This document shows positions 3,080 to 27,279 of a DNA stretch of 27,279 nucleotides, piece after piece; position 1 is the first letter of the stretch; each line of letters begins with the position of its first letter. The stretch comes from a virus. Lineage: Duplodnaviria; Heunggongvirae; Uroviricota; Caudoviricetes. The translations under genes were made by a program, and so were the position numbers. The stretch is taken from the IMG/VR virus record IMGVR_UViG_2541047774_000009. One strand, given 5' to 3'. Below the pieces are notes generated by a model. The model was given only the letters and a program-made list of their open reading frames with translations, was not told where the DNA came from and did not search any database.

Positions 3080-3599
3080 TCAGCAACCCCGGTATCAGTT
3101 CATCCAGCGCGGCTGCTTTGTTCATGGCTTTGATGATATCCCGTTTCAGGAAATCAACATGTCGGTTTTCCAGTTCCGGAAAACGCCGCTGCACCGACAG
3201 GGGGATCCCGTCGAGAATACTGGCAATTTCACCTGCGATCCGCGACAACACGAAAGTACAGAATGCGGTTTCCACCACTTCAGCGGAGTCTCTGGCATTC
3301 TTCAGTTCCTGTGCGTCGGCCTGCGCACGCGTAAGTCGATGGCGTTCGTACTCAATAGTCCCTGGCTGGAGATCTGCCTCGCTGGCCTGCCGCAGTTCTT
3401 CAACCTCCCGGCGCAGCTTTTCGTTCTCAATTTCAGCATCCCTTTCGGCATACCATTTTATGACGGCGGCAGAGTCATAAAGCACCTCATTACCCTTGCC
3501 ACCGCCTCGCAGAACGGGCATTCCCTGTTCCTGCCAGTTCTGAATGGTACGGATACTCGCACCGAAAATGTCAGCCAGCTGCTTTTTGTTGACTTCCAT
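3054..3599 (-). CDS. Nu1: Terminase small subunit Nu1 (181 aa)
   Basis: Translation MEVNKKQLADIFGASIRTIQNWQEQGMPVLRGGGKGNEVLYDSAAVIKWYAERDAEIENEKLRREVEEL matches lambda Nu1; located immediately downstream of cos. Confidence 0.95.
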
Positions 3600-3776
3600 T
3601 GTTCATTCCACGGACAAAAACAGAGAAAGGAAACGACAGAGGCCAAAAAGCTCGCTTTCAGCACCTGTCGTTTCCTTTCTTTTCAGGGGGTATTTTAAAT
3701 AAAAACATTAAGTTACGACGAAGAAGAACGGAAACACCTTAAACCGGAAAATTTTCATAAATAGCGAAAACCCGCG

Positions 3777-3788
3777 AGGTCGCCGCCC
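3777..3788 (-). other. cosN cohesive-end sequence (12 nt); cosB lies between here and Nu1 start (3600-3776)
   Basis: Reverse complement of 3777-3788 is GGGCGGCGACCT, the lambda 5' cohesive end; reverse complement of 3600-3790 reproduces the lambda left-end sequence (GGGCGGCGACCTCGCGGGTTTTCGCTATTTATGAAAATTTTCCGG...). Confidence 0.85.
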
Positions 3789-3937
3789 CGTAGCCTGTTG
3801 GATCGCCGGAAAGGACCCGAAAAACGAGAATAATTATCACTTACAGCAAGAATCGAATCTGATCTATTATGGTGCTTGCTATTATGTGCCGGCACAAGTG
3901 CGTCGTTTACCGTCATTTCACACAGAGGCATCATCAA

Positions 3938-4189
3938 ATGAAAATCAGAAATATTCTCGCTATCTCCCTTGCAACATCATCCTTCAGTTGCCTGGCATTT
4001 AAATCCTCGCCCAATGTGCTACCAGGACCAACGAATCAACTAACTGCGGTAGAAAGTAAAATTATCGGACATTTTTATGCCCCACACAGTGCATTACCCG
4101 GAACAACCATCACAGGGACATGTGACGCCTCCCCCGTCCCGGGATGCACCTGTCCGTTTTGTACTATGCTGCGTAGCCAAAACCGATAA
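3938..4189 (+). CDS. Hypothetical small secreted protein (83 aa) with N-terminal signal peptide and Cys-rich C-terminus
   Basis: Internal ATG of track ORF 3869..4189; product MKIRNILAISLATSSFSCLAFK... has a hydrophobic signal-like N-terminus and CDASPVPGCTCPFC near the C-terminus; no family recognised. Confidence 0.3.
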   Translation: MKIRNILAISLATSSFSCLAFKSSPNVLPGPTNQLTAVESKIIGHFYAPHSALPGTTITGTCDASPVPGCTCPFCTMLRSQNR

Positions 4190-5684: not shown

Positions 5685-6146
5685 CTATCTGCACTGCTCA
5701 TTAATATACTTCTGGGTTCCTTCCAGTTGTTTTTGCATAGTGATCAGCCTCTCTCTGAGGGTGAAATAATCCCGTTCAGCGGTGTCTGCCAGTCGGGGGG
5801 AGGCTGCATTATCCACGCCGGAGGCGGTGGTGGCTTCACGCACTGACTGACAGACTGCTTTGATGTGCAACCGACGACGACCAGCGGCAACATCATCACG
5901 CAGAGCATCATTTTCAGCTTTCGCATCAGCTAACTCCTTCGTGTATTTTGCATCGAGCGCAGCAACATCACGCTGACGCATCTGCATGTCAGTAATTGCC
6001 GCGTTCGCCAGCTTCAGTTCTCTGGCATTTTTGTCGCGCAGGGCTTTGTAGGCGATTGCGTTATCACGGTAATGATTAACAGCCCATGACAGGCAGACGA
6101 TGATGCAGATAACCAGAGCATAAATAATCGCGGCGACTCTGCTCAC
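5685..6146 (-). CDS. Rz: Rz i-spanin (153 aa, GTG start overlapping R stop)
   Basis: Translation from GTG at 6144-6146: (M)[59 protein letters not shown]... matches lambda Rz. Confidence 0.9.
5744..5926 (-). CDS. Rz1: Rz1 o-spanin lipoprotein (60 aa), embedded in Rz in +1 frame
   Basis: [60 protein letters not shown], lipobox VVGC and Pro-rich tract, near-identical to lambda Rz1; entirely inside Rz. Confidence 0.9.
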
Positions 6147-6676
6147 TGATCTATCCCCCAACAGGCTAATGCGCTTTCCTGGTCACGACGAATAACCTGT
6201 CCATAGCAGTTATTTGAACGTATGCGGCAATCGCGCCCACCATCTTTTATCCACCAGCGAATCGCCTCGCATGCACCTTTACGATCACCGGCATTCAGCC
6301 GCTTATAAAACGTCGACGGGAAACACTTACCGGGGCCAATGTTATAGGGACAAAATGACGCGATACCCGCTTTCTGTGGTTCGGTCAGTGGCACTTTAAT
6401 ATTGCGCTCCACCCATGCCAGCGCCTTATCCCGTTCAATGGCGTTAACCTGGTCGCATTTTTCCTTCGACAGTTTCATACCGGGAACAACGGGTTTTCCA
6501 TCCACCACCGTGGCACCCCGACAGATGGTCCAGATGCCGGAACCATCGCGGTATGCCGTTGTGTGGTTACCTTCTTTTTCATCCAGAAACTGGTCGAGAA
6601 TATCAGGCGCAGGCGCACCGACGGCAATCAGTGCCAGAACGGCAGCCGACAGGCCGTATCTGATTTTTGCGTTCAT
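6143..6676 (-). CDS. R: SAR endolysin (GH24 T4-lysozyme-like, 177 aa)
   Basis: N-terminal signal-arrest-release segment [16 protein letters not shown] followed by catalytic E-x8-D-x5-T triad ([16 protein letters not shown]); matches P21/933W-type R rather than lambda transglycosylase. Confidence 0.9.
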
Positions 6677-6781
6677 GGATATTTATCAGGATTTATCGGT
6701 TTCTGAACCCTGGATATGTTTATCTGTCCCGGCCTGTTGAATCAGGCAAGGAATAGTTAAATACAATAGAGAGGATTGTTT

Positions 6782-7054
6782 ATGGACAATAGCACCATTT
6801 CTCTACAGGAGTTGCTCGACTGCATTTCCAGGCTTCGGGATGATGTAAATGCCCTTACTGTCGCATTTTCATATCTGGCATTCTCAATTCCCAAGGAACA
6901 AATGCAACCAACACTGGCATCGCTCCAGCTTGAATCAATCAATCCCAAATGGTCCCAGCAACAACAAAATTCTTTCAAGTGGCTGGCGGTATTACTGGAG
7001 GAAAAATATGCTGGTGAAATTACCATTTCGGCGGAGTCTTCAGTGAACCAGTAA
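6782..7054 (+). CDS. Hypothetical small protein (90 aa), antisense to the lysis operon
   Basis: ATG at 6782 preceded by GAGAGGA (6767-6773); occupies a 343-nt gap between the DUF1327-like gene and R; 3' end overlaps DUF1327-like gene on the opposite strand by 35 nt; no family recognised. Confidence 0.35.
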   Translation: MDNSTISLQELLDCISRLRDDVNALTVAFSYLAFSIPKEQMQPTLASLQLESINPKWSQQQQNSFKWLAVLLEEKYAGEITISAESSVNQ

Positions 7055-15523: not shown

Positions 15524-16338
15524 CCCCTGAATCCTGCCGGGATCTGGCTGTAGTCCACGTTGTCGTAACTGGCTTTGAAGTACGGGTCCTCGCGTCTGGC
15601 TGCAGATACCGCAGGAACTTCCCAGGATTCTTCGAAATGACGATCCGGACCAAAGAACGTGACAGCCTGTTTCACAAATTGTGTGCCGCTGTTACCCATC
15701 GCAGATACCCAGCCCGCGTAGCGTTTCACACCTTCCAGCATGGTTTCGGGTTTTACCCCCTCATTCAAACGAGCTTTCCAGGCTTTGAAGGCTGCAGATT
15801 TTGAATTGCCACCAGCACGTTTGGGGTATGCCAGCCATGCCTGCTCAAACTCCGGAGAGTATTCCGGTCGGTTTGAACGAACTCGCACGGACTCATCAGC
15901 AGATGCACCAACAGCTATTGGTTCATTGACTGGTTCTTTGACTGGTTCAAAAGAGTGACTGGTTCTGGGTGAATCTCCTGCACCACCCCCTGGTGCAACT
16001 CCTGCACTACCTGGTGAATTTGCTGCACCAGATAGTGAATTATTTGCACTACCCCCTAGTGAATCTCCTGCACCATCAAGATGAAGGAGATAGATATTAC
16101 TTGAGTTACCTTTTTCACCTTTCCGGGTGACTTTTTTTACCAGCCCGGAATCACAAAGGGCCGCAATATGATTCATCACAGAACGTTTGCTAATCTCGCA
16201 CTGGTCAGCAATATGCTGGTAGCTGGGCCAGCACTCACCCTGATCGCTGGCATTATCAGCCAGCTTGATCAGAACCAGTTTTCGCAATGGATTACCCACT
16301 CGAATTTTCATCGCTTTAACCATCAGCTCCATACTCAT
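15520..16338 (-). CDS. Replication initiation protein, O-like with HTH_36-type N-terminal domain (272 aa)
   Basis: N-terminal VGNPLRKLVLIKLADNASDQGECWPSYQHIADQCEISKRSVMNHIAALCDSGLV typical of phage replication-initiator wHTH; iteron array inside the Gly/Ser/Ala-rich linker coding region; GGAGG RBS. Confidence 0.7.
   Translation of the reverse strand: MSMELMVKAMKIRVGNPLRKLVLIKLADNASDQGECWPSYQHIADQCEISKRSVMNHIAALCDSGLVKKVTRKGEKGNSSNIYLLHLDGAGDSLGGSANNSLSGAANSPGSAGVAPGGGAGDSPRTSHSFEPVKEPVNEPIAVGASADESVRVRSNRPEYSPEFEQAWLAYPKRAGGNSKSAAFKAWKARLNEGVKPETMLEGVKRYAGWVSAMGNSGTQFVKQAVTFFGPDRHFEESWEVPAVSAARREDPYFKASYDNVDYSQIPAGFRG
15925..16080. repeat. Iteron array (candidate replication origin) inside the initiator gene
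   Basis: Three TGACTGGTTC repeats (15927-15965) followed by five about 19-bp direct repeats of consensus TRGTGAATYTCCTGCACYA (15966-16075) at about 21-24 bp spacing. Confidence 0.6.
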
Positions 16339-21005: not shown

Positions 21006-21530
21006 ATGTCATTTATTAAAACTTTTTCCGGGAAACATTTTTATTATGACAGGATAAATAAAGACAACATCGATATTAACGATATCGCGGTTTCCCTTTC
21101 AAATATCTGTCGCTTTGCCGGCCATCTTTCACACTTCTACAGCGTCGCCCAACATGCGGTGCTTTGCAGCCAGCTGGTACCGCAGGAATTTGCTTTTGAA
21201 GCGTTAATGCATGATGCAACAGAAGCGTATTGCCAGGACATCCCGGCTCCACTGAAACGCCTTCTTCCTGACTATAAACGGATGGAAGAAAAAATAGACG
21301 CCGTAATCCGTGAGAAATACGGGTTACCCCCGGTTATGAGTACGCCCGTGAAATATGCCGATCTCATCATGCTGGCAACCGAACGCCGCGATCTCGGGCT
21401 TGATGATGGCTCTTTCTGGCCCGTACTGGAAGGTATCCCGGCAACAGAGATGTTCAAAGTTATTCCACTGTCGCCAGGCCATACCTATGGGATGTTTATG
21501 GAACGCTTTAAAGAGTTAACTGAGTCGTAA
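21006..21530 (+). CDS. yfdR: HD-domain 5'-deoxynucleotidase YfdR-like (174 aa from ATG 21006)
   Basis: MSFIKTFSGKHFYYDRINKDNIDINDIAVSLSNICRFAGH... with HD motif (LMHDATEAY); GGAGA RBS 5 nt before ATG. Confidence 0.75.
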   Translation: MSFIKTFSGKHFYYDRINKDNIDINDIAVSLSNICRFAGHLSHFYSVAQHAVLCSQLVPQEFAFEALMHDATEAYCQDIPAPLKRLLPDYKRMEEKIDAVIREKYGLPPVMSTPVKYADLIMLATERRDLGLDDGSFWPVLEGIPATEMFKVIPLSPGHTYGMFMERFKELTES

Positions 21531-21638
21531 AAATCAGCACGTACGAATTCAAACTCTGCCATAAAAGAACATATAAGTAATTTATTAACATATAGATATA
21601 GGTTATATTACAAATTGAACAATTATTGGAGAGCAACA

Positions 21639-22505
21639 ATGAATCAAAATCCATTCTCATTCTATGACTTTCTTGGATATTTAATACCAGGTGGTTTTTT
21701 TATCCTATTAATGTATTTCTGTGGTTTGACATTCGATCTAGATATTGTTATTGACTTAAGTGAATTGCTCAGAGGTCAAAGTCAAATCTTTGGCATTTTG
21801 AACTACGCTTCAATAGTTATTATATCTTATATAGCTGGACATTTTATTTCTATCACGTCAGCATTTTTTATCGAAAAACACATGAATAAAGAATTAGGAT
21901 ATCCTTCCAAATATCTATTTAAAAAATTGATAGATACCTCAGAAAGCATTTGTAGCCCATCATGCGATGAGAGAAGCGCTGATAAAAAAACAAAAATAAA
22001 GAATCGCATAATCAAATGCGTATTATGCCCAATAATACTATGGGATTTTATAACACAAAAACTATGTTATTCTCAATCTCTACCATTTCATTTAGCTAAT
22101 ACAACATGGTTAATGATCAAAGAAGGTTATGAGAAAAAGTTCATAACAAATCGCCAATTATTACAAGATAAAAACGGACTTGATGATGATCTCTTCAGAT
22201 TGGCATATCATTATGTTTATGAGTTTTCAAAACAACATCAAACAAAAATTCAAAACTATGTTGCATTATATGGTTTTTGCAGAAACATATGTTTAATCTT
22301 TATAATTTCATTTTGGGTATCAGTTCCAACCTTTATTTATCGATTATGTACTCATAGTGATTATCTTTATAGTTTACTTTCAATAATGCTTAGCTTTTTC
22401 TTCGTCTATGTTTTCTATGTTGGTTTTGTTAAATTTTATAGAAGATATACTTTAGAAGTATTAATGGCATTTGCTGTACTTCAAAGTAACGACACTATTC
22501 GTTAA
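21639..22505 (+). CDS. Hypothetical multi-pass membrane protein (288 aa), AT-rich moron
   Basis: GGAGAG RBS before ATG 21639; at least five hydrophobic helices (e.g. FFILLMYFCGLTF, IFGILNYASIVIISYIAGHFISITSAFFI, CRNICLIFIISFWVSVPTFIY, LLSIMLSFFFVYVFYVGFV); very low GC relative to flanking phage DNA. Confidence 0.6.
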   Translation: MNQNPFSFYDFLGYLIPGGFFILLMYFCGLTFDLDIVIDLSELLRGQSQIFGILNYASIVIISYIAGHFISITSAFFIEKHMNKELGYPSKYLFKKLIDTSESICSPSCDERSADKKTKIKNRIIKCVLCPIILWDFITQKLCYSQSLPFHLANTTWLMIKEGYEKKFITNRQLLQDKNGLDDDLFRLAYHYVYEFSKQHQTKIQNYVALYGFCRNICLIFIISFWVSVPTFIYRLCTHSDYLYSLLSIMLSFFFVYVFYVGFVKFYRRYTLEVLMAFAVLQSNDTIR

Positions 22506-22546
22506 TAATGTTGCTCCCGTGTGCAGACGGGATAATGGAGAAACGT

Positions 22547-22753
22547 ATGCTGAACCTCGATTGTGTTCCTATCTCAACTTATTGCAAAGAAACTGGCGAA
22601 ACTCCTGAAGCAATAAACAAACGTGTACAGCGCGGTGTTTGGCGTGAAGGTGTTCAGGTTTTAAAGGTTGAAGGCGTTAAGGAGAGGTGGATTGATCTTA
22701 GTGAGGTTGCAAAATGGGCCAGACAAAACTGCTCAAACTACCGCGCGGCGTAA
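22547..22753 (+). CDS. xis: Excisionase-like protein (68 aa; alternative start 22535)
   Basis: Small basic ORF immediately upstream of and overlapping int by 40 nt; GGAG RBS; resembles prophage excisionase-like proteins. Confidence 0.6.
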   Translation: MLNLDCVPISTYCKETGETPEAINKRVQRGVWREGVQVLKVEGVKERWIDLSEVAKWARQNCSNYRAA

Positions 22754-23889
22754 CAATCAGGAAACACCGCCAGGGCGAAACGATCAATATAACTTTCACC
22801 TACAAAGGAGTTAGATGTCGTGAGCCGCTTTCCAATCTGGAAGTAACACCAAAGAACATTAAATACGCCGAGCGTACACTCGGCGAAATCCATAATAAGA
22901 TCGAAAGGGGAACATTCATTTATGCAGAATATTTTCCCCGTTCTGCTCGTTTGAAAATTTTTGGTAATGCTGCTGCAGGCAAAACGGTAAAGATGTACCT
23001 GGACGAATATCTTGAAATCTGCGAAACAAGAAAACTTTCACCCTCTACGATTGGTGGCTATAAAAAATGCCGTAGTGCGTTAGCCTCACTTCACATTTGC
23101 CCTGCAAGTGAATTAACACCAGCAACCCTGAAAGCGTGGATTCAAAGCCAGAAAACAACCTTAAAAACCATTCGCAACCAGTTATCTTTCCTGCGGTCAG
23201 CACTTGATGAAGCCGTGACCGATGGGGTACTTCAAATTAACCCCGTATCGTTAGTAACAGCTTCGCGCTACCAAAGTGATAAGTCAGAAGCAGAAAGCAG
23301 CTATGTGGTTGATCCGCTATCACCAGCAGAAGTTGATGCATTACTAGCAGCAGCCGGAAACAAACAATGGGAAAATCTGTTCCGGTTCGCTATACATACA
23401 GGCCTGCGTAGTTCTGAACTATGTGCCCTTCGATGGCGTGATATCGACTTTGTTGGAAAAACAGCACATGTCCAGAGCGCAAGTGTTGTTGGTGTTATCA
23501 AAGGGACCAAAACAAAAGCCGGTACTCGTAAAGTTGAACTGACAGAAGAGGCAATGTTGGCGCTGATAAATCAGAAGCCATTTACGTTCATGAAAGATGC
23601 TACGGTCTTTGAAGATCCAAAGACCAATAAGCCTTGGGCAAGTGCTGATGCAATCAGGAAAAAAGCATGGGTGCCAACATTGCGAAAAGCAGGTATTCGC
23701 TACAGAAACCCATATCAGACCAGGCACACTTATGCTACTAAGTACATTAGCCAAGGAGCTAATCTCTTCTGGCTAGCAGGGCAGATGGGGCATAAGGGGC
23801 CCGAAATGTTGTTTCGTCATTATGGGCGTTACTTGAGTGATTATGACAACCACAGCTCAACAACGCTCACAAGTAATTGCAAAAAGTAG
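22714..23889 (+). CDS. int: Tyrosine integrase (391 aa)
   Basis: Catalytic-domain motifs HTGLRSSEL (Arg), RHTYATK (His/Arg) and LFRHYGRYL (Tyr nucleophile); N-terminal arm-binding-like domain. Confidence 0.9.
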   Translation: MGQTKLLKLPRGVTIRKHRQGETINITFTYKGVRCREPLSNLEVTPKNIKYAERTLGEIHNKIERGTFIYAEYFPRSARLKIFGNAAAGKTVKMYLDEYLEICETRKLSPSTIGGYKKCRSALASLHICPASELTPATLKAWIQSQKTTLKTIRNQLSFLRSALDEAVTDGVLQINPVSLVTASRYQSDKSEAESSYVVDPLSPAEVDALLAAAGNKQWENLFRFAIHTGLRSSELCALRWRDIDFVGKTAHVQSASVVGVIKGTKTKAGTRKVELTEEAMLALINQKPFTFMKDATVFEDPKTNKPWASADAIRKKAWVPTLRKAGIRYRNPYQTRHTYATKYISQGANLFWLAGQMGHKGPEMLFRHYGRYLSDYDNHSSTTLTSNCKK

Positions 23890-24139
23890 CCTTGAGCAAG
23901 GTAAAGCATGTTATTCAAAGAAGCCTATTTCGTTCAAAACGAGAGGTCCTCCACAAATCCACGCTTGAATAGGTATTCTTTACAATTATGAGCATACCCC
24001 TTATAGATTTATTCCATTGAAAAATGCCATCCCCCTGATAAAACAACAGTATTATTGTTTCAAAAAAAATGTTATAAGTAAATTCACTTACATGTAACGT
24101 TTAAATTTTTGTTTAAGAAGTATAAATTAGAGGGATAAA

Positions 24140-24991
24140 ATGACTACACCAGTAATAAGTTTCATAAATATGAAAGGTGGGGTTGGTAAAACAACTTTAT
24201 GCGTCGGCATTGCTGAATATCTTGCAAACTTCATGGATAAAAAGGTATTAATTATCGATATTGACCCACAATTTAACGCTACACAGTCAATACTTAGTAA
24301 ATATGATCGAGTGAAAGAGTATATAGCTGATCACTTAGAAAATACAAAAACCATCAGACGAATATTCGAGACAAAATCAAGCTTAACGGGTAAAGTTCAG
24401 CAGGTCACTCCTGATGAAATTATCATCAAGATGTCAGAGCACTTAGATATGATTTTTGGTGATATTAATACAATATTTGATATTGAACAACCTGCGGCAA
24501 GATTACATAAGCTAAAACGCTTTATAGAAGAACATAAGCTTCGAGATATATATGACTTCATTTTGATCGATAGCCCACCAACCATTTCATTATTTACTGA
24601 TGCAGCTCTCGTTGCTTCAGATTATTATATTGTGCCAGTTAAAATTGACCACTACTCAATTTTAGGTGCGACAAGTCTTTTAAGCGTAATAGAAAACATT
24701 CAAGATAATTATGACCATAAAAACATTCAAAACCTTGGTTTTATTTATACTAATACCCTAGAAAATCTATCAAAAAAGACAAAAAAGCTAAAGACAGACT
24801 TTGAAAGTACTGAACCTTTTAATGAACTATACTTTTTTGATAACCAGTTGAAGTTTGTACAGGATTTGATGGTGGGTGGTAGAGGTAATATATCATCAAG
24901 TTATAAATCATCCAGAAAATATATCAAAGCGATTTGTGAAGAGTTTTTAAGTCGGATCCAAGAAGTGCAAACGGGGGGGGAAGATGAATAA
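24140..24991 (+). CDS. ParA/MinD-family P-loop ATPase (283 aa)
   Basis: Deviant Walker A MKGGVGKTT, IDIDPQFNATQ motif, ILIDSPPTISLF Walker B-like segment; AGAGGGA RBS; AT-rich. Confidence 0.85.
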   Translation: MTTPVISFINMKGGVGKTTLCVGIAEYLANFMDKKVLIIDIDPQFNATQSILSKYDRVKEYIADHLENTKTIRRIFETKSSLTGKVQQVTPDEIIIKMSEHLDMIFGDINTIFDIEQPAARLHKLKRFIEEHKLRDIYDFILIDSPPTISLFTDAALVASDYYIVPVKIDHYSILGATSLLSVIENIQDNYDHKNIQNLGFIYTNTLENLSKKTKKLKTDFESTEPFNELYFFDNQLKFVQDLMVGGRGNISSSYKSSRKYIKAICEEFLSRIQEVQTGGEDE

Positions 24992-25397
24992 AAATAGTAA
25001 CAACCTCGAATTATTACAGACATTGGTTTATAAGAAGCCCTCGTCAAAAGAAGCGTTTATTGGTTTGATAACAATAGCAATCTATTCTAGGGAAATTTTT
25101 GTTAAAAATGAAGATGCAGCAGAATTCGTAAAAAATGTATTTGGATTAAGTTTCTTAGACTACGTCATCAAGTCAAGAACTTTATTATGCGCTAGACTTA
25201 CCCGTAATCTTGTAAATATGAGCGAGAGAGACATTAAAGAATGCATATATAAAGCATCAGAGTATTTTAAAACTGACAAATTTATTATTGGATATAATGA
25301 AAACTCACTTACTTTTAAAAAAAGTAACGTCAAACGTAATGCAAATCGAGATGTAGGTACGTGGATTAATGCTCTTTTGAAGAAGGATAGAAAATAA
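24984..25397 (+). CDS. Hypothetical protein (137 aa), second gene of ParA-like operon
   Basis: Start overlaps ParA stop by 8 nt; Lys/Asn-rich; no family recognised. Confidence 0.5.
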   Translation: MNKNSNNLELLQTLVYKKPSSKEAFIGLITIAIYSREIFVKNEDAAEFVKNVFGLSFLDYVIKSRTLLCARLTRNLVNMSERDIKECIYKASEYFKTDKFIIGYNENSLTFKKSNVKRNANRDVGTWINALLKKDRK

Positions 25398-26062
25398 TGC
25401 TTCAAAGAGACCCACATGGATTTAGAAAAGACGTAAAAGAATTTATCACAATGATAAAATCATTTCAGGTCGATATTCGCACCGAAAACAATCTTACATC
25501 GGCTTATAAACATGTGCTTTTTCTGGAGTTTATCCATAACTCACATCCAGAAATAAGTCACAAAACCTTTATAAAAAGTATTATTTATGATGTTTTAAGT
25601 TCAATTACAGCGATACTTCATAAACGAGAGCGATATCTTCATCTTAATTTTCGCTCAATGATTGAACATCTTGCACGTATATCCTTACAAAAAGTTGATA
25701 ACGGGGGGGATTTCGATATTACAATTAGAACTCTTGATTTCGAGAATCTTAAATCTACCAACACTGATGAAAACTGGGCGTACATGCATTCACAGTATAA
25801 ACAAGCATGTGGCTGGTTACACTCATCATCTAAAGTTAAATTAAATATCACAGCATCATTTCCAGATTTATTAAAGTCTGATTCAAAAAGTAATGCAGCT
25901 AAACTGTCAACCCATTTGCAAAAGATGACTACCGAAATGTTAAAGATTTTTTTTAACTACTATGTTGATGAGATTCAAACTTCTTTTTACCGCACACGGG
26001 GAGAAATGAGGTATGTGCTTGGCAACCATAACTTCGAATATTTTTTAAGCAAGAATCCATAA
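25397..26062 (+). CDS. Hypothetical protein (221 aa), third gene of ParA-like operon
   Basis: ATG overlaps upstream stop (TAATG), AAGGA RBS; no family recognised. Confidence 0.5.
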   Translation: MLQRDPHGFRKDVKEFITMIKSFQVDIRTENNLTSAYKHVLFLEFIHNSHPEISHKTFIKSIIYDVLSSITAILHKRERYLHLNFRSMIEHLARISLQKVDNGGDFDITIRTLDFENLKSTNTDENWAYMHSQYKQACGWLHSSSKVKLNITASFPDLLKSDSKSNAAKLSTHLQKMTTEMLKIFFNYYVDEIQTSFYRTRGEMRYVLGNHNFEYFLSKNP

Positions 26063-26152
26063 ATATATATTTCCTTAAAAAGGATACGTGAAGTACACGA
26101 AGCATGCGAGAAATAAAATAAAAAAATAAAAATCAATAAATTAAAAACAAAT

Positions 26153-26388: not shown

Positions 26389-27279
26389 ATGGCAAGACAA
26401 ACCAAACCTCTCTCCGTTAAGGAAATCGAATCAGCCAAACCCAAAGAAGTGGACTACGTTCTCTATGATGGTGATGGCCTTGAGCTACTCATCAAATCCA
26501 GCGGGAGTAAAATCTGGCAGTTTCGCTACATTCGCCCTGTCACCAAGAAACGTGCGAAGAAGAGCATTGGCCCCTACCCGTCAGTTACGCTTGCCGATGC
26601 AAGAAACTATCGCGCAGAGTCTCGTTCTCTTCTGGCGAAACAAATCGACCCTCAGGAACATCAGCAAGAACAACTTCGCAGTTCGCTGGAAGCTAAAACC
26701 AATACTTTCCAGCTCGTGGCTGAACGTTGGTGGAATGTGAAGAAAACCAGTGTGACCGAAGACTACGCAGAGGATATCTGGCGCTCTCTTGAGAGAGATG
26801 TTTTTCCTGCGATTGGCGACGTTAGCGTTACAGATATTAAAGCTCACACACTGGTTCAGGCCGTCCAACCGGTTCAGGCCAGAGGAGCACTGGAAACCGT
26901 TCGTCGCCTGTGTCAGCGCATTAATGAGGTCATGATCTATGCCCAAAACACAGGGCTGATTGATGCTGTACCCAGCGTTAATATCGGTAAAGCATTCGAG
27001 AAGCCTCAGAAAAAGAACATGCCCAGCATTCGACCGGATCAGCTACCACAACTGATGCAAACAATGCGAACAGCCAGCATTAGTCTTTCCACACGCTGCC
27101 TGTTCATGTGGCAACTCCTTACTATTAGCCGCCCTGCCGAAGCGGCTGAAGCACGCTGGGAAGAGGTAGACATAGAAGCGCGAGAGTGGAAGATTCCTGC
27201 AGCACGTATGAAAATGAACCGCGACCATACTGTTCCATTGTCAGATGAAGCAATTGTGTCAACGACGGATGAAAAGTGA
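26389..27279 (+). CDS. intA: IntA-like (P4/CP4-57 family) integrase, apparently truncated at 296 aa
   Basis: MARQTKPLSVKEIESAKPKEVDYVLYDGDGLELLIKSSGSKIWQFRYIRP... P4-family integrase N-terminal and core-binding regions; in-frame TGA at 27277-27279 before the catalytic His/Arg/Tyr region. Confidence 0.75.
   Translation: MARQTKPLSVKEIESAKPKEVDYVLYDGDGLELLIKSSGSKIWQFRYIRPVTKKRAKKSIGPYPSVTLADARNYRAESRSLLAKQIDPQEHQQEQLRSSLEAKTNTFQLVAERWWNVKKTSVTEDYAEDIWRSLERDVFPAIGDVSVTDIKAHTLVQAVQPVQARGALETVRRLCQRINEVMIYAQNTGLIDAVPSVNIGKAFEKPQKKNMPSIRPDQLPQLMQTMRTASISLSTRCLFMWQLLTISRPAEAAEARWEEVDIEAREWKIPAARMKMNRDHTVPLSDEAIVSTTDEK

Follow-up and report, generated by a model that had tools for sequence, protein, structure and literature searches.

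What does a strikingly AT-rich gene, lying between the early-left genes and the excisionase-integrase pair of an Escherichia coli lambdoid prophage, do for the phage or for its host? The question is raised by an open reading frame (ORF) in a stretch of 27,279 nucleotides, hereafter the window, taken from a virus of the Caudoviricetes (IMG/VR record IMGVR_UViG_2541047774_000009). The ORF is intact, with 288 codons between an ATG start and a TAA stop (21639–22505, plus strand; stop at 22503–22505), and its region is 100% identical to part of the E. coli chromosome NZ_LR883965, where the gene order within a lambdoid prophage is yfdP-yfdQ-yfdR-[ORF]-xis-int and the product (WP_021530639.1) is annotated as "hypothetical protein." The features discussed below are collected in Table 1. 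A first-pass annotation, made from the sequence alone, had described a gene with a ribosome-binding site and a GC content far below that of its neighbors, encoding a multi-pass membrane protein, and each of these points was borne out. The GC content of the ORF is 28.6% (21.8% at third codon positions) and that of the spacer upstream of it is 26.9%, against about 46% in the flanking genes (yfdQ, 45.9%; yfdR, 46.0%; xis, 46.7%; int, 44.9%); a GGAG motif lies 7 nt from the ATG; and the predicted product is a multi-pass protein of the inner membrane. The ATG was preferred over a TTG at 21615 because it is the start called by PGAP and because conservation in the family begins at M1. With the threshold used in the consensus scan, no promoter was detected in the upstream spacer, where a possible weak one was picked out by eye, and the same scan gave no terminator belonging to the ORF itself.

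Table 1. Coordinates of the features described in the text (positions in the 27,279-nt window)
Feature	Position	Strand	Evidence or remark
Left flank: yfdR-like HD-domain 5'-deoxynucleotidase, last conserved early-left gene	21006..21530	+	
AT-rich 990-bp cargo cassette, not common to the E. coli C7 sister prophage	21526..22515	.	blastn
Possible weak own promoter: -35 TTTATT (21581-86), 17-nt spacer, -10 TATATT (21604-09)	21581..21609	+	by eye, putative
Shine-Dalgarno GGAG	21628..21631	+	7 nt 5' of ATG
CDS, Csx27-like 4-TM inner-membrane protein (predicted)	21639..22505	+	WP_021530639.1, PHROG 12528
Cytoplasmic N-terminal tail, aa 1-11, motif QNPFSxYDF	21639..21671	+	3.18 bits per column, top segment
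TM1, aa 12-34, conserved LGYxIPG	21672..21740	+	hydropathy, model, conservation
TM2, aa 51-78, conserved Y64, G67, H68, S74	21789..21872	+	hydropathy, model, conservation
Cytoplasmic helical domain, aa 79-208, K/R-rich, ~130 aa	21873..22262	+	positive-inside counts, model
TM3, aa 209-236, conserved ALYGFxR (R215) at cytoplasmic end	22263..22346	+	hydropathy, model, conservation
TM4, aa 244-265, ends in conserved F263, K265	22368..22433	+	hydropathy, model, conservation
Cytoplasmic C-terminal helix, aa 266-288, conserved FYRRxxLExxMA	22434..22502	+	model, conservation
Right flank: excisionase (PHROG 2917)	22547..22753	+	
Right flank: tyrosine integrase, Arm-DNA-bind_2 and Phage_integrase domains	22714..23889	+	
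Three overlapping ORFs in the second AT-rich block	24140-24991, 24984-25397, 25397-26062	+	

The gene had also been taken for a horizontally acquired insertion next to xis and int, and the comparison with a related prophage without the insert upheld this reading. In the sister prophage of E. coli C7, homology to the window detected by blastn ends at 21525 and resumes at 22516, with flanks that are 94.7% and 97.3% identical to those of the window. Between these same flanks, C7 carries a different segment of 610 bp, with two small ORFs, in place of the 990 bp. Since the 990-bp segment is replaced by other DNA in C7, it is an exchangeable cargo cassette occupying a variable slot. Its GC content is about 0.27–0.30 throughout, and no transposon-like repeats were found at its borders beyond chance matches between AT-rich sequences. 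The ORF is an intact, horizontally swapped passenger ("moron") gene of an E. coli lambdoid prophage. Exactly where the homology to C7 resumes, 16 nt before the start of xis, the window contains a perfect 5-bp hairpin (22516–22531; CCCGT-GTGCAG-ACGGG), which has no T-tract and is thus not a typical terminator, and which could serve in regulation or mark a site of recombination.

Some other features of the window were recorded during this analysis. Just past the integrase lies a second AT-rich block (23900–26100; GC about 0.28–0.34), whose three overlapping ORFs (Table 1) encode a ParA/AAA_31-type ATPase, with a weak PADLOC match to the candidate PDC-M28B, and two proteins without family. Other prophages with a roughly 95%-identical integrase have different cargo at this place: E. 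coli C7 carries DarT/NADAR (DarTG), and UPEC129 a STAS-like trio. The block is possibly another variable slot, occupied by an uncharacterised system of three genes. The homology shared with related prophages breaks off at 23825 or 23846, within the final 15–20 codons of int and ahead of its stop codon (23889). The 3' end of int is therefore overlapped either by the swapped downstream module or by the att core; no tRNA or tmRNA gene was found in the window. A second gene with an integrase domain (26389–27279) runs off the end of the window, and past it the matching genome encodes a response-regulator-receiver protein, an ATP-binding protein and an IS3 element, an arrangement that suggests tandem integrative elements beside the prophage. 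Finally, the early-right or replication region contains a cluster of short tandem repeats with periods of 12, 21, and 24 (15919–16073), similar to the iterons of replication origins.

Of 5,426 complete E. coli genomes, 205 have a full-length allele of the gene and about 284 others a more distant, P2-type homologue; about 9% of complete E. coli genomes carry a member of the family. The alleles with 77%–85% protein identity are all intact, with 288 codons, and dN/dS against them is 0.17–0.25: the gene is under purifying selection. With intact copies in 205 complete genomes and dN/dS values of this order, the ORF is not the degraded remnant that the first-pass annotation had set against its own reading. 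The 77% allele occupies positions 6001–6867 of E. coli chromosomal loci (L086–L091), where it comes after yfdP-yfdQ-yfdR in a prophage remnant without integrase, and it is followed there by a PrtN-like (PyocinActivator) gene and a gene with a SocA_Panacea domain, beside zur-dinF-lexA. In the collection, 2,138 blocks list this allele.

The identity of the product was sought by searches against the main family and structure collections. Pfam gave no match at E values up to 0.1, and in PHROGs the sole match was PHROG 12528, of "unknown function." No glycosyltransferase or protease motif had been recognized by eye, in agreement with the profile searches: there was no Pfam match to the CAAX protease/Abi family (PF02517) or to lactococcal Abi proteins and no PADLOC match to Abi, no match to GtrA (Gtr O-antigen conversion) or to glycosyltransferases in Pfam or NCBIfam, and no similarity to SieA/SieB-type exclusion families in PHROGs or Pfam. 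No PDB sequence was matched in a profile search even at E = 10, and a structure search with the confident AlphaFold model of the protein turned up no relative, either in the PDB or among models of viral proteins. The membrane nuclease SNIPE (PD-lambda-1) was set aside on account of its other architecture, made of one TM segment, DUF4041, and GIY-YIG. The family itself is large. An exhaustive HMMER search (E up to 1e-3) yielded 949 cluster representatives at 50% identity, nearly all of them full-length (about 270–300 aa), and one species-level genome scan placed relatives in Gammaproteobacteria, Bacteroidota, Bacillota, Acidobacteriota, Gemmatimonadota, Chloroflexota, and others. No domain fusions were present in the ten longer relatives, and a literature search found no paper naming the subfamily. 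The gene is already filed, as a PHROG and as an entry of the P2 hotspot described below, and its family is otherwise uncharacterised.

Kyte-Doolittle hydropathy delimited four membrane segments (about aa 12–34, 51–78, 209–236, and 244–265), and the helices of the AlphaFold model, for which an alignment of 117 sequences was the input (pLDDT 89.9, pTM 0.88), agree with them. This corrects the earlier count of at least five hydrophobic helices, as the fifth stretch (aa 124–142) scored 1.47, under the threshold, and in the model forms two short kinked helices within the cytoplasmic domain. Both termini are predicted to be cytoplasmic by the positive-inside rule. Among the 117 relatives, which share about 30% identity, 9 columns are invariant and 27 near-invariant. 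The invariant polar residues are H68, S74, E79, H191, R215, and K265, the first three of them conserved at the inner end of TM2, and E195, H200, K203, and N206 are near-invariant. Besides the N-terminal tail (Table 1), conservation is high in the helix that precedes TM3 (aa 184–208; 2.60 bits; D184, R187, H191, E195, H200, K203, and N206) and in the C-terminal tail (1.99 bits), while the periplasmic loops are short and poorly conserved (0.47 and 0.15 bits). This skew of conservation places the functional site at the cytoplasm or the inner leaflet of the membrane. A conserved surface that is cytoplasmic, not periplasmic, weakens the case for a role in receptor masking or surface conversion.

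Csx27, reportedly described in 2017 by Smargon and colleagues as an accessory membrane protein of type VI-B1 CRISPR-Cas13b loci, was the sole family that recurred among the 117 members in searches of PADLOC and NCBIfam. Its PADLOC model was matched by 83 of them (best E value, 2.2e-10) and its NCBIfam model by 19 (best, 2e-6). The ORF product itself matches the PADLOC model PDLC01605 with E = 3.8e-6, its residues 6–268 being aligned to profile positions 4–188 of 206, and the NCBIfam equivalog NF040557 with 15.2 bits (E = 0.017) over residues 5–44 only, a score that does not reach the NCBIfam cut-off of 65 bits for Csx27. In both cases, the QNPFSxYDF stretch of the N-terminal tail aligns to the start of the profile. 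The 41 kb of annotated sequence around the ORF contain no cas gene, and the window contains no CRISPR-like array. Since the protein is below the cut-off, is ~80 residues longer, and has neither cas genes nor CRISPR nearby, we regard it as a remote relative of Csx27 and not as Csx27; by profile match and by its four TM helices, it is a remote member of a Csx27-like superfamily of four-TM proteins.

According to second-hand accounts of Makarova et al. 2019 (PMC7642515, PMC11662929), Csx27 belongs to an expansive family of four-TM proteins, and a wide family in which many members match Csx27 fits this placement. In the same accounts, Csx27 family proteins are proposed to be channels for single-stranded DNA, and the wider family occurs in operons with natural-transformation (DprA/ComF), ubiquitin-system, and WYL-HTH genes. 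No DprA, WYL, or ubiquitin-like genes were seen among the families common to the 145 immediate neighbors of 78 relatives of the ORF. When assayed in E. coli, Csx27 represses Cas13b-mediated interference against MS2 by up to 1e5-fold (bioRxiv 10.1101/092577). Our literature search found no paper tying these prophage genes to Csx27.

The position next to xis-int is not peculiar to this prophage. Across about 45 non-redundant IMG/VR loci, a tyrosine integrase is found within the next two genes in 20, and the gene directly precedes an excisionase–tyrosine integrase pair in at least five different backbones, several of them of unrelated temperate phages. The integrases and excisionases next to it are of three Pfam types. 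Klebsiella phage P7641 shows the same placement upstream of xis-int. In P2-like phages, a homologue that is 42% identical over 287 aa (E = 1e-63) is located between the portal gene Q and the replication gene A, that is, in the gpA-gpQ or old/tin hotspot. It is part of a pair that Rousset et al. 2022 (PMC9122126) list in their Table S5B as system #3 of 169, with 1,102 of 18,150 hotspot loci and the remark "1 TM in protein 1, 4 TM in protein 2," where the four TM segments of the homologue were obtained with Phobius. By this table, the P2 homologue is the third commonest cargo of the gpA-gpQ defence hotspot. Many validated anti-phage systems reside in the hotspot, along with cargo that is not for defence, among it a toxin and the ParM/StbB partition genes (Rousset et al. 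2022, PMC9122126); the sequence of the P2 homologue is missing from the table of cloned systems in the same study.

In the P2-like phages, a one-TM protein of 165 aa with a DUF4760 domain (3464–3961 in locus L084, and also in loci L144–L150) always precedes the four-TM homologue, and ParM/StbB partition genes adjoin the pair. The two proteins may be a two-gene version of the module. Searches with jackhmmer found DUF4760 in P2-like loci only, with none in the window or in 80 genomic loci.

Outside phages, no conserved operon partner was found across 78 species-level genomic loci. The upstream neighbor is co-directional in 66 of 71 chromosomal loci, and the immediate neighbors are mixed, including integrases (six loci), type I restriction-modification genes (three), glycosyltransferases of polysaccharide loci (eight), and many housekeeping genes. 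With no conserved neighbor and such heterogeneous contexts, the family behaves as a solitary, mobile module. The chromosomal relatives are not clearly in defence islands. The polysaccharide loci (8 of 78) are mostly from Bacteroidales; in them, the relatives lie among GT2 and GT4 glycosyltransferases, in gut Bacteroidales and in one Acholeplasmataceae genome, and this is the sole recurrent context that is not mobile.

From these data, we infer that the ORF product could be a stand-alone membrane effector against phages or mobile DNA, working by exclusion or abortive infection, and we put the probability of this reading at about 0.4. It is drawn from position, both in the xis-int backbones and in the P2 gpA-gpQ hotspot, and from the remote homology to Csx27. 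The exclusion or conversion gene proposed in the first-pass annotation is plausible. Counting for it are the cargo status of the gene, its positions in phages, the P2 hotspot, the link to Csx27, purifying selection, the stand-alone character of the module, and the cytoplasm-facing site. Counting against it are the non-defence cargo of the P2 hotspot, the chromosomal neighbors, and a location on the early-left strand without a strong promoter of its own, as well as the facts that Csx27 represses Cas13b in E. coli and that the similarity to Csx27 is remote (15.2 vs. 65 bits). Given the early-left strand and the lack of a strong own promoter, expression in the lysogen is putative. If the protein is such an effector, the conserved cluster of His, Glu, Lys, Arg, and Tyr residues at the cytoplasmic face of the membrane would sense or bind a ligand in the cytoplasm or the inner leaflet, or else part of the entry machinery. 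The four-helix core would then perturb the membrane in the manner of RexB and Csx28, with abortive infection or dormancy as the outcome; alternatively, it would obstruct the passage of DNA across the inner membrane, causing superinfection exclusion.

Other readings were weighed against this one. The protein might be a membrane enzyme or transporter whose substrate, such as a lipid, an undecaprenyl-linked sugar, or a small molecule, lies in the inner leaflet. It would then alter the envelope or the physiology of the lysogen, and the gene would serve lysogenic conversion or fitness and not immunity. The clustering of the invariant polar residues at the cytoplasmic membrane interface is like that of an active or phosphate-binding site, the motifs are kept across phyla more strictly than is usual in pore-type effectors, and 8 of the 78 chromosomal relatives, mostly from Bacteroidales, are among glycosyltransferases of polysaccharide loci. 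These loci, however, are variable low-GC regions that gather foreign genes, and neither sequence nor fold matches any enzyme or transporter in Pfam, NCBIfam, or the PDB. The protein also has no conserved partner enzyme and minimal periplasmic loops. Conversion genes such as gtr and oac are usually on the att side of int and not upstream of xis, where the ORF lies. On balance, an enzyme or transporter seems doubtful.

Somewhat less probable is that the ORF is an early-left gene of phage development, equivalent to those of the lambda exo-xis interval, whose transcription from pL would follow infection or induction and whose product would serve the phage itself at the host membrane, for example in the early exclusion of co-infecting phages, in lysis timing, or in the lysis-lysogeny decision; we consider these options, taken together, unlikely. 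The gene does have the same strand and order as yfdP-yfdQ-yfdR-xis-int and no convincing promoter of its own, its placement just upstream of xis is repeated in other phages, and the chromosomal relatives mostly have a co-directional upstream neighbor (66 of 71 loci). It is, however, dispensable, as the sister prophage with the same flanks lacks it, and its P2-like counterpart resides in a cargo hotspot instead of an early operon. In addition, the family is widespread in non-phage chromosomal contexts of many phyla, and an allele is kept under purifying selection in a remnant without an integrase.

A role as an immune modulator or anti-defence protein, damping an immune or dormancy response of the host or of a prophage as Csx27 does, or altering DNA uptake, is very unlikely in our judgment. 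The remote homology to Csx27, which lowers Cas13b interference in E. coli (10.1101/092577), speaks for it, as does the proposal of ssDNA channels in second-hand accounts of Makarova et al. 2019 (PMC7642515, PMC11662929), itself hypothetical. Against this, E. coli is without a type VI system, the window and the 20 kb around it are free of cas genes and CRISPR arrays, and the 145 neighbors include no DprA, WYL, or ubiquitin-like families. A selfish or decaying passenger without current function, as might be expected of unannotated, AT-rich foreign DNA of the kind usually silenced by H-NS, is extremely improbable, since all examined alleles are intact with dN/dS of 0.17–0.25, and since 9 invariant and 27 near-invariant columns persist in 117 sequences of a family with 949 clusters at 50% identity.

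The effector reading can be extended from this gene to its family: stand-alone Csx27-like proteins with four helices would be a widespread single-gene membrane module for immunity or exclusion, shuttled in the cargo slots of temperate phages. We advance this as a tentative generalization, less probable than the effector reading of the ORF. If it is true, the E. coli copy is a tractable model for what the Csx27 family does at the membrane. The family is large and strictly conserved, has a fold without a solved relative, is common in E. coli prophages, and has no assigned function, and for Csx27, the sole known relative, no mechanism has been given since 2017. A phenotype would therefore explain a frequent prophage cargo gene and also provide a first functional handle on the Csx27 family; should the protein prove to be an ordinary membrane enzyme, or produce no phenotype, it would be one more hypothetical moron gene.

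Several known systems can be set beside the ORF. MotA has the same gross plan as the ORF product: a large cytoplasmic domain separates TM1-TM2 from TM3-TM4, and a cytoplasmic tail follows. Chains of MotA, PomA, and ExbB were among the top Foldseek rows for the model, yet without significance: MotA/PomA/ExbB/TolQ and ZorA of the Zorya system were all rejected, with E ≥ 0.7, TM-score ≤ 0.27, and probability ≤ 0.38. The stators of the MotA/ExbB type also differ in having a partner, and no MotB/ExbD-like gene is beside the ORF. By analogy only, lambda RexB (four TM), the Csx28 pore, P22 SieA, and HK97 gp15 may be compared with it as inner-membrane proteins of small or medium size from prophages or defence loci, with an action at the membrane during infection, although there is no sequence or profile similarity to the PADLOC models of these exclusion and defence membrane effectors and no structural match. 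Csx27 and the ORF product each have four predicted TM helices and have in common the N-terminal motif and the TM3-TM4 region, and the mechanism of both is uncharacterised. They differ in that the ORF product is longer by ~80 residues, which form a larger cytoplasmic domain, and in that the gene stands alone, unlike csx27, being phage-borne in Enterobacteria and without Cas13b or a CRISPR array. System #3 of the P2 hotspot is found in the gpA-gpQ slot behind DUF4760, whereas the ORF occupies the yfdR/xis slot of a lambdoid phage and has no DUF4760 partner; in both, a homologous four-TM protein is encoded by AT-rich cargo of E. coli temperate phages and is lodged in a hypervariable slot.
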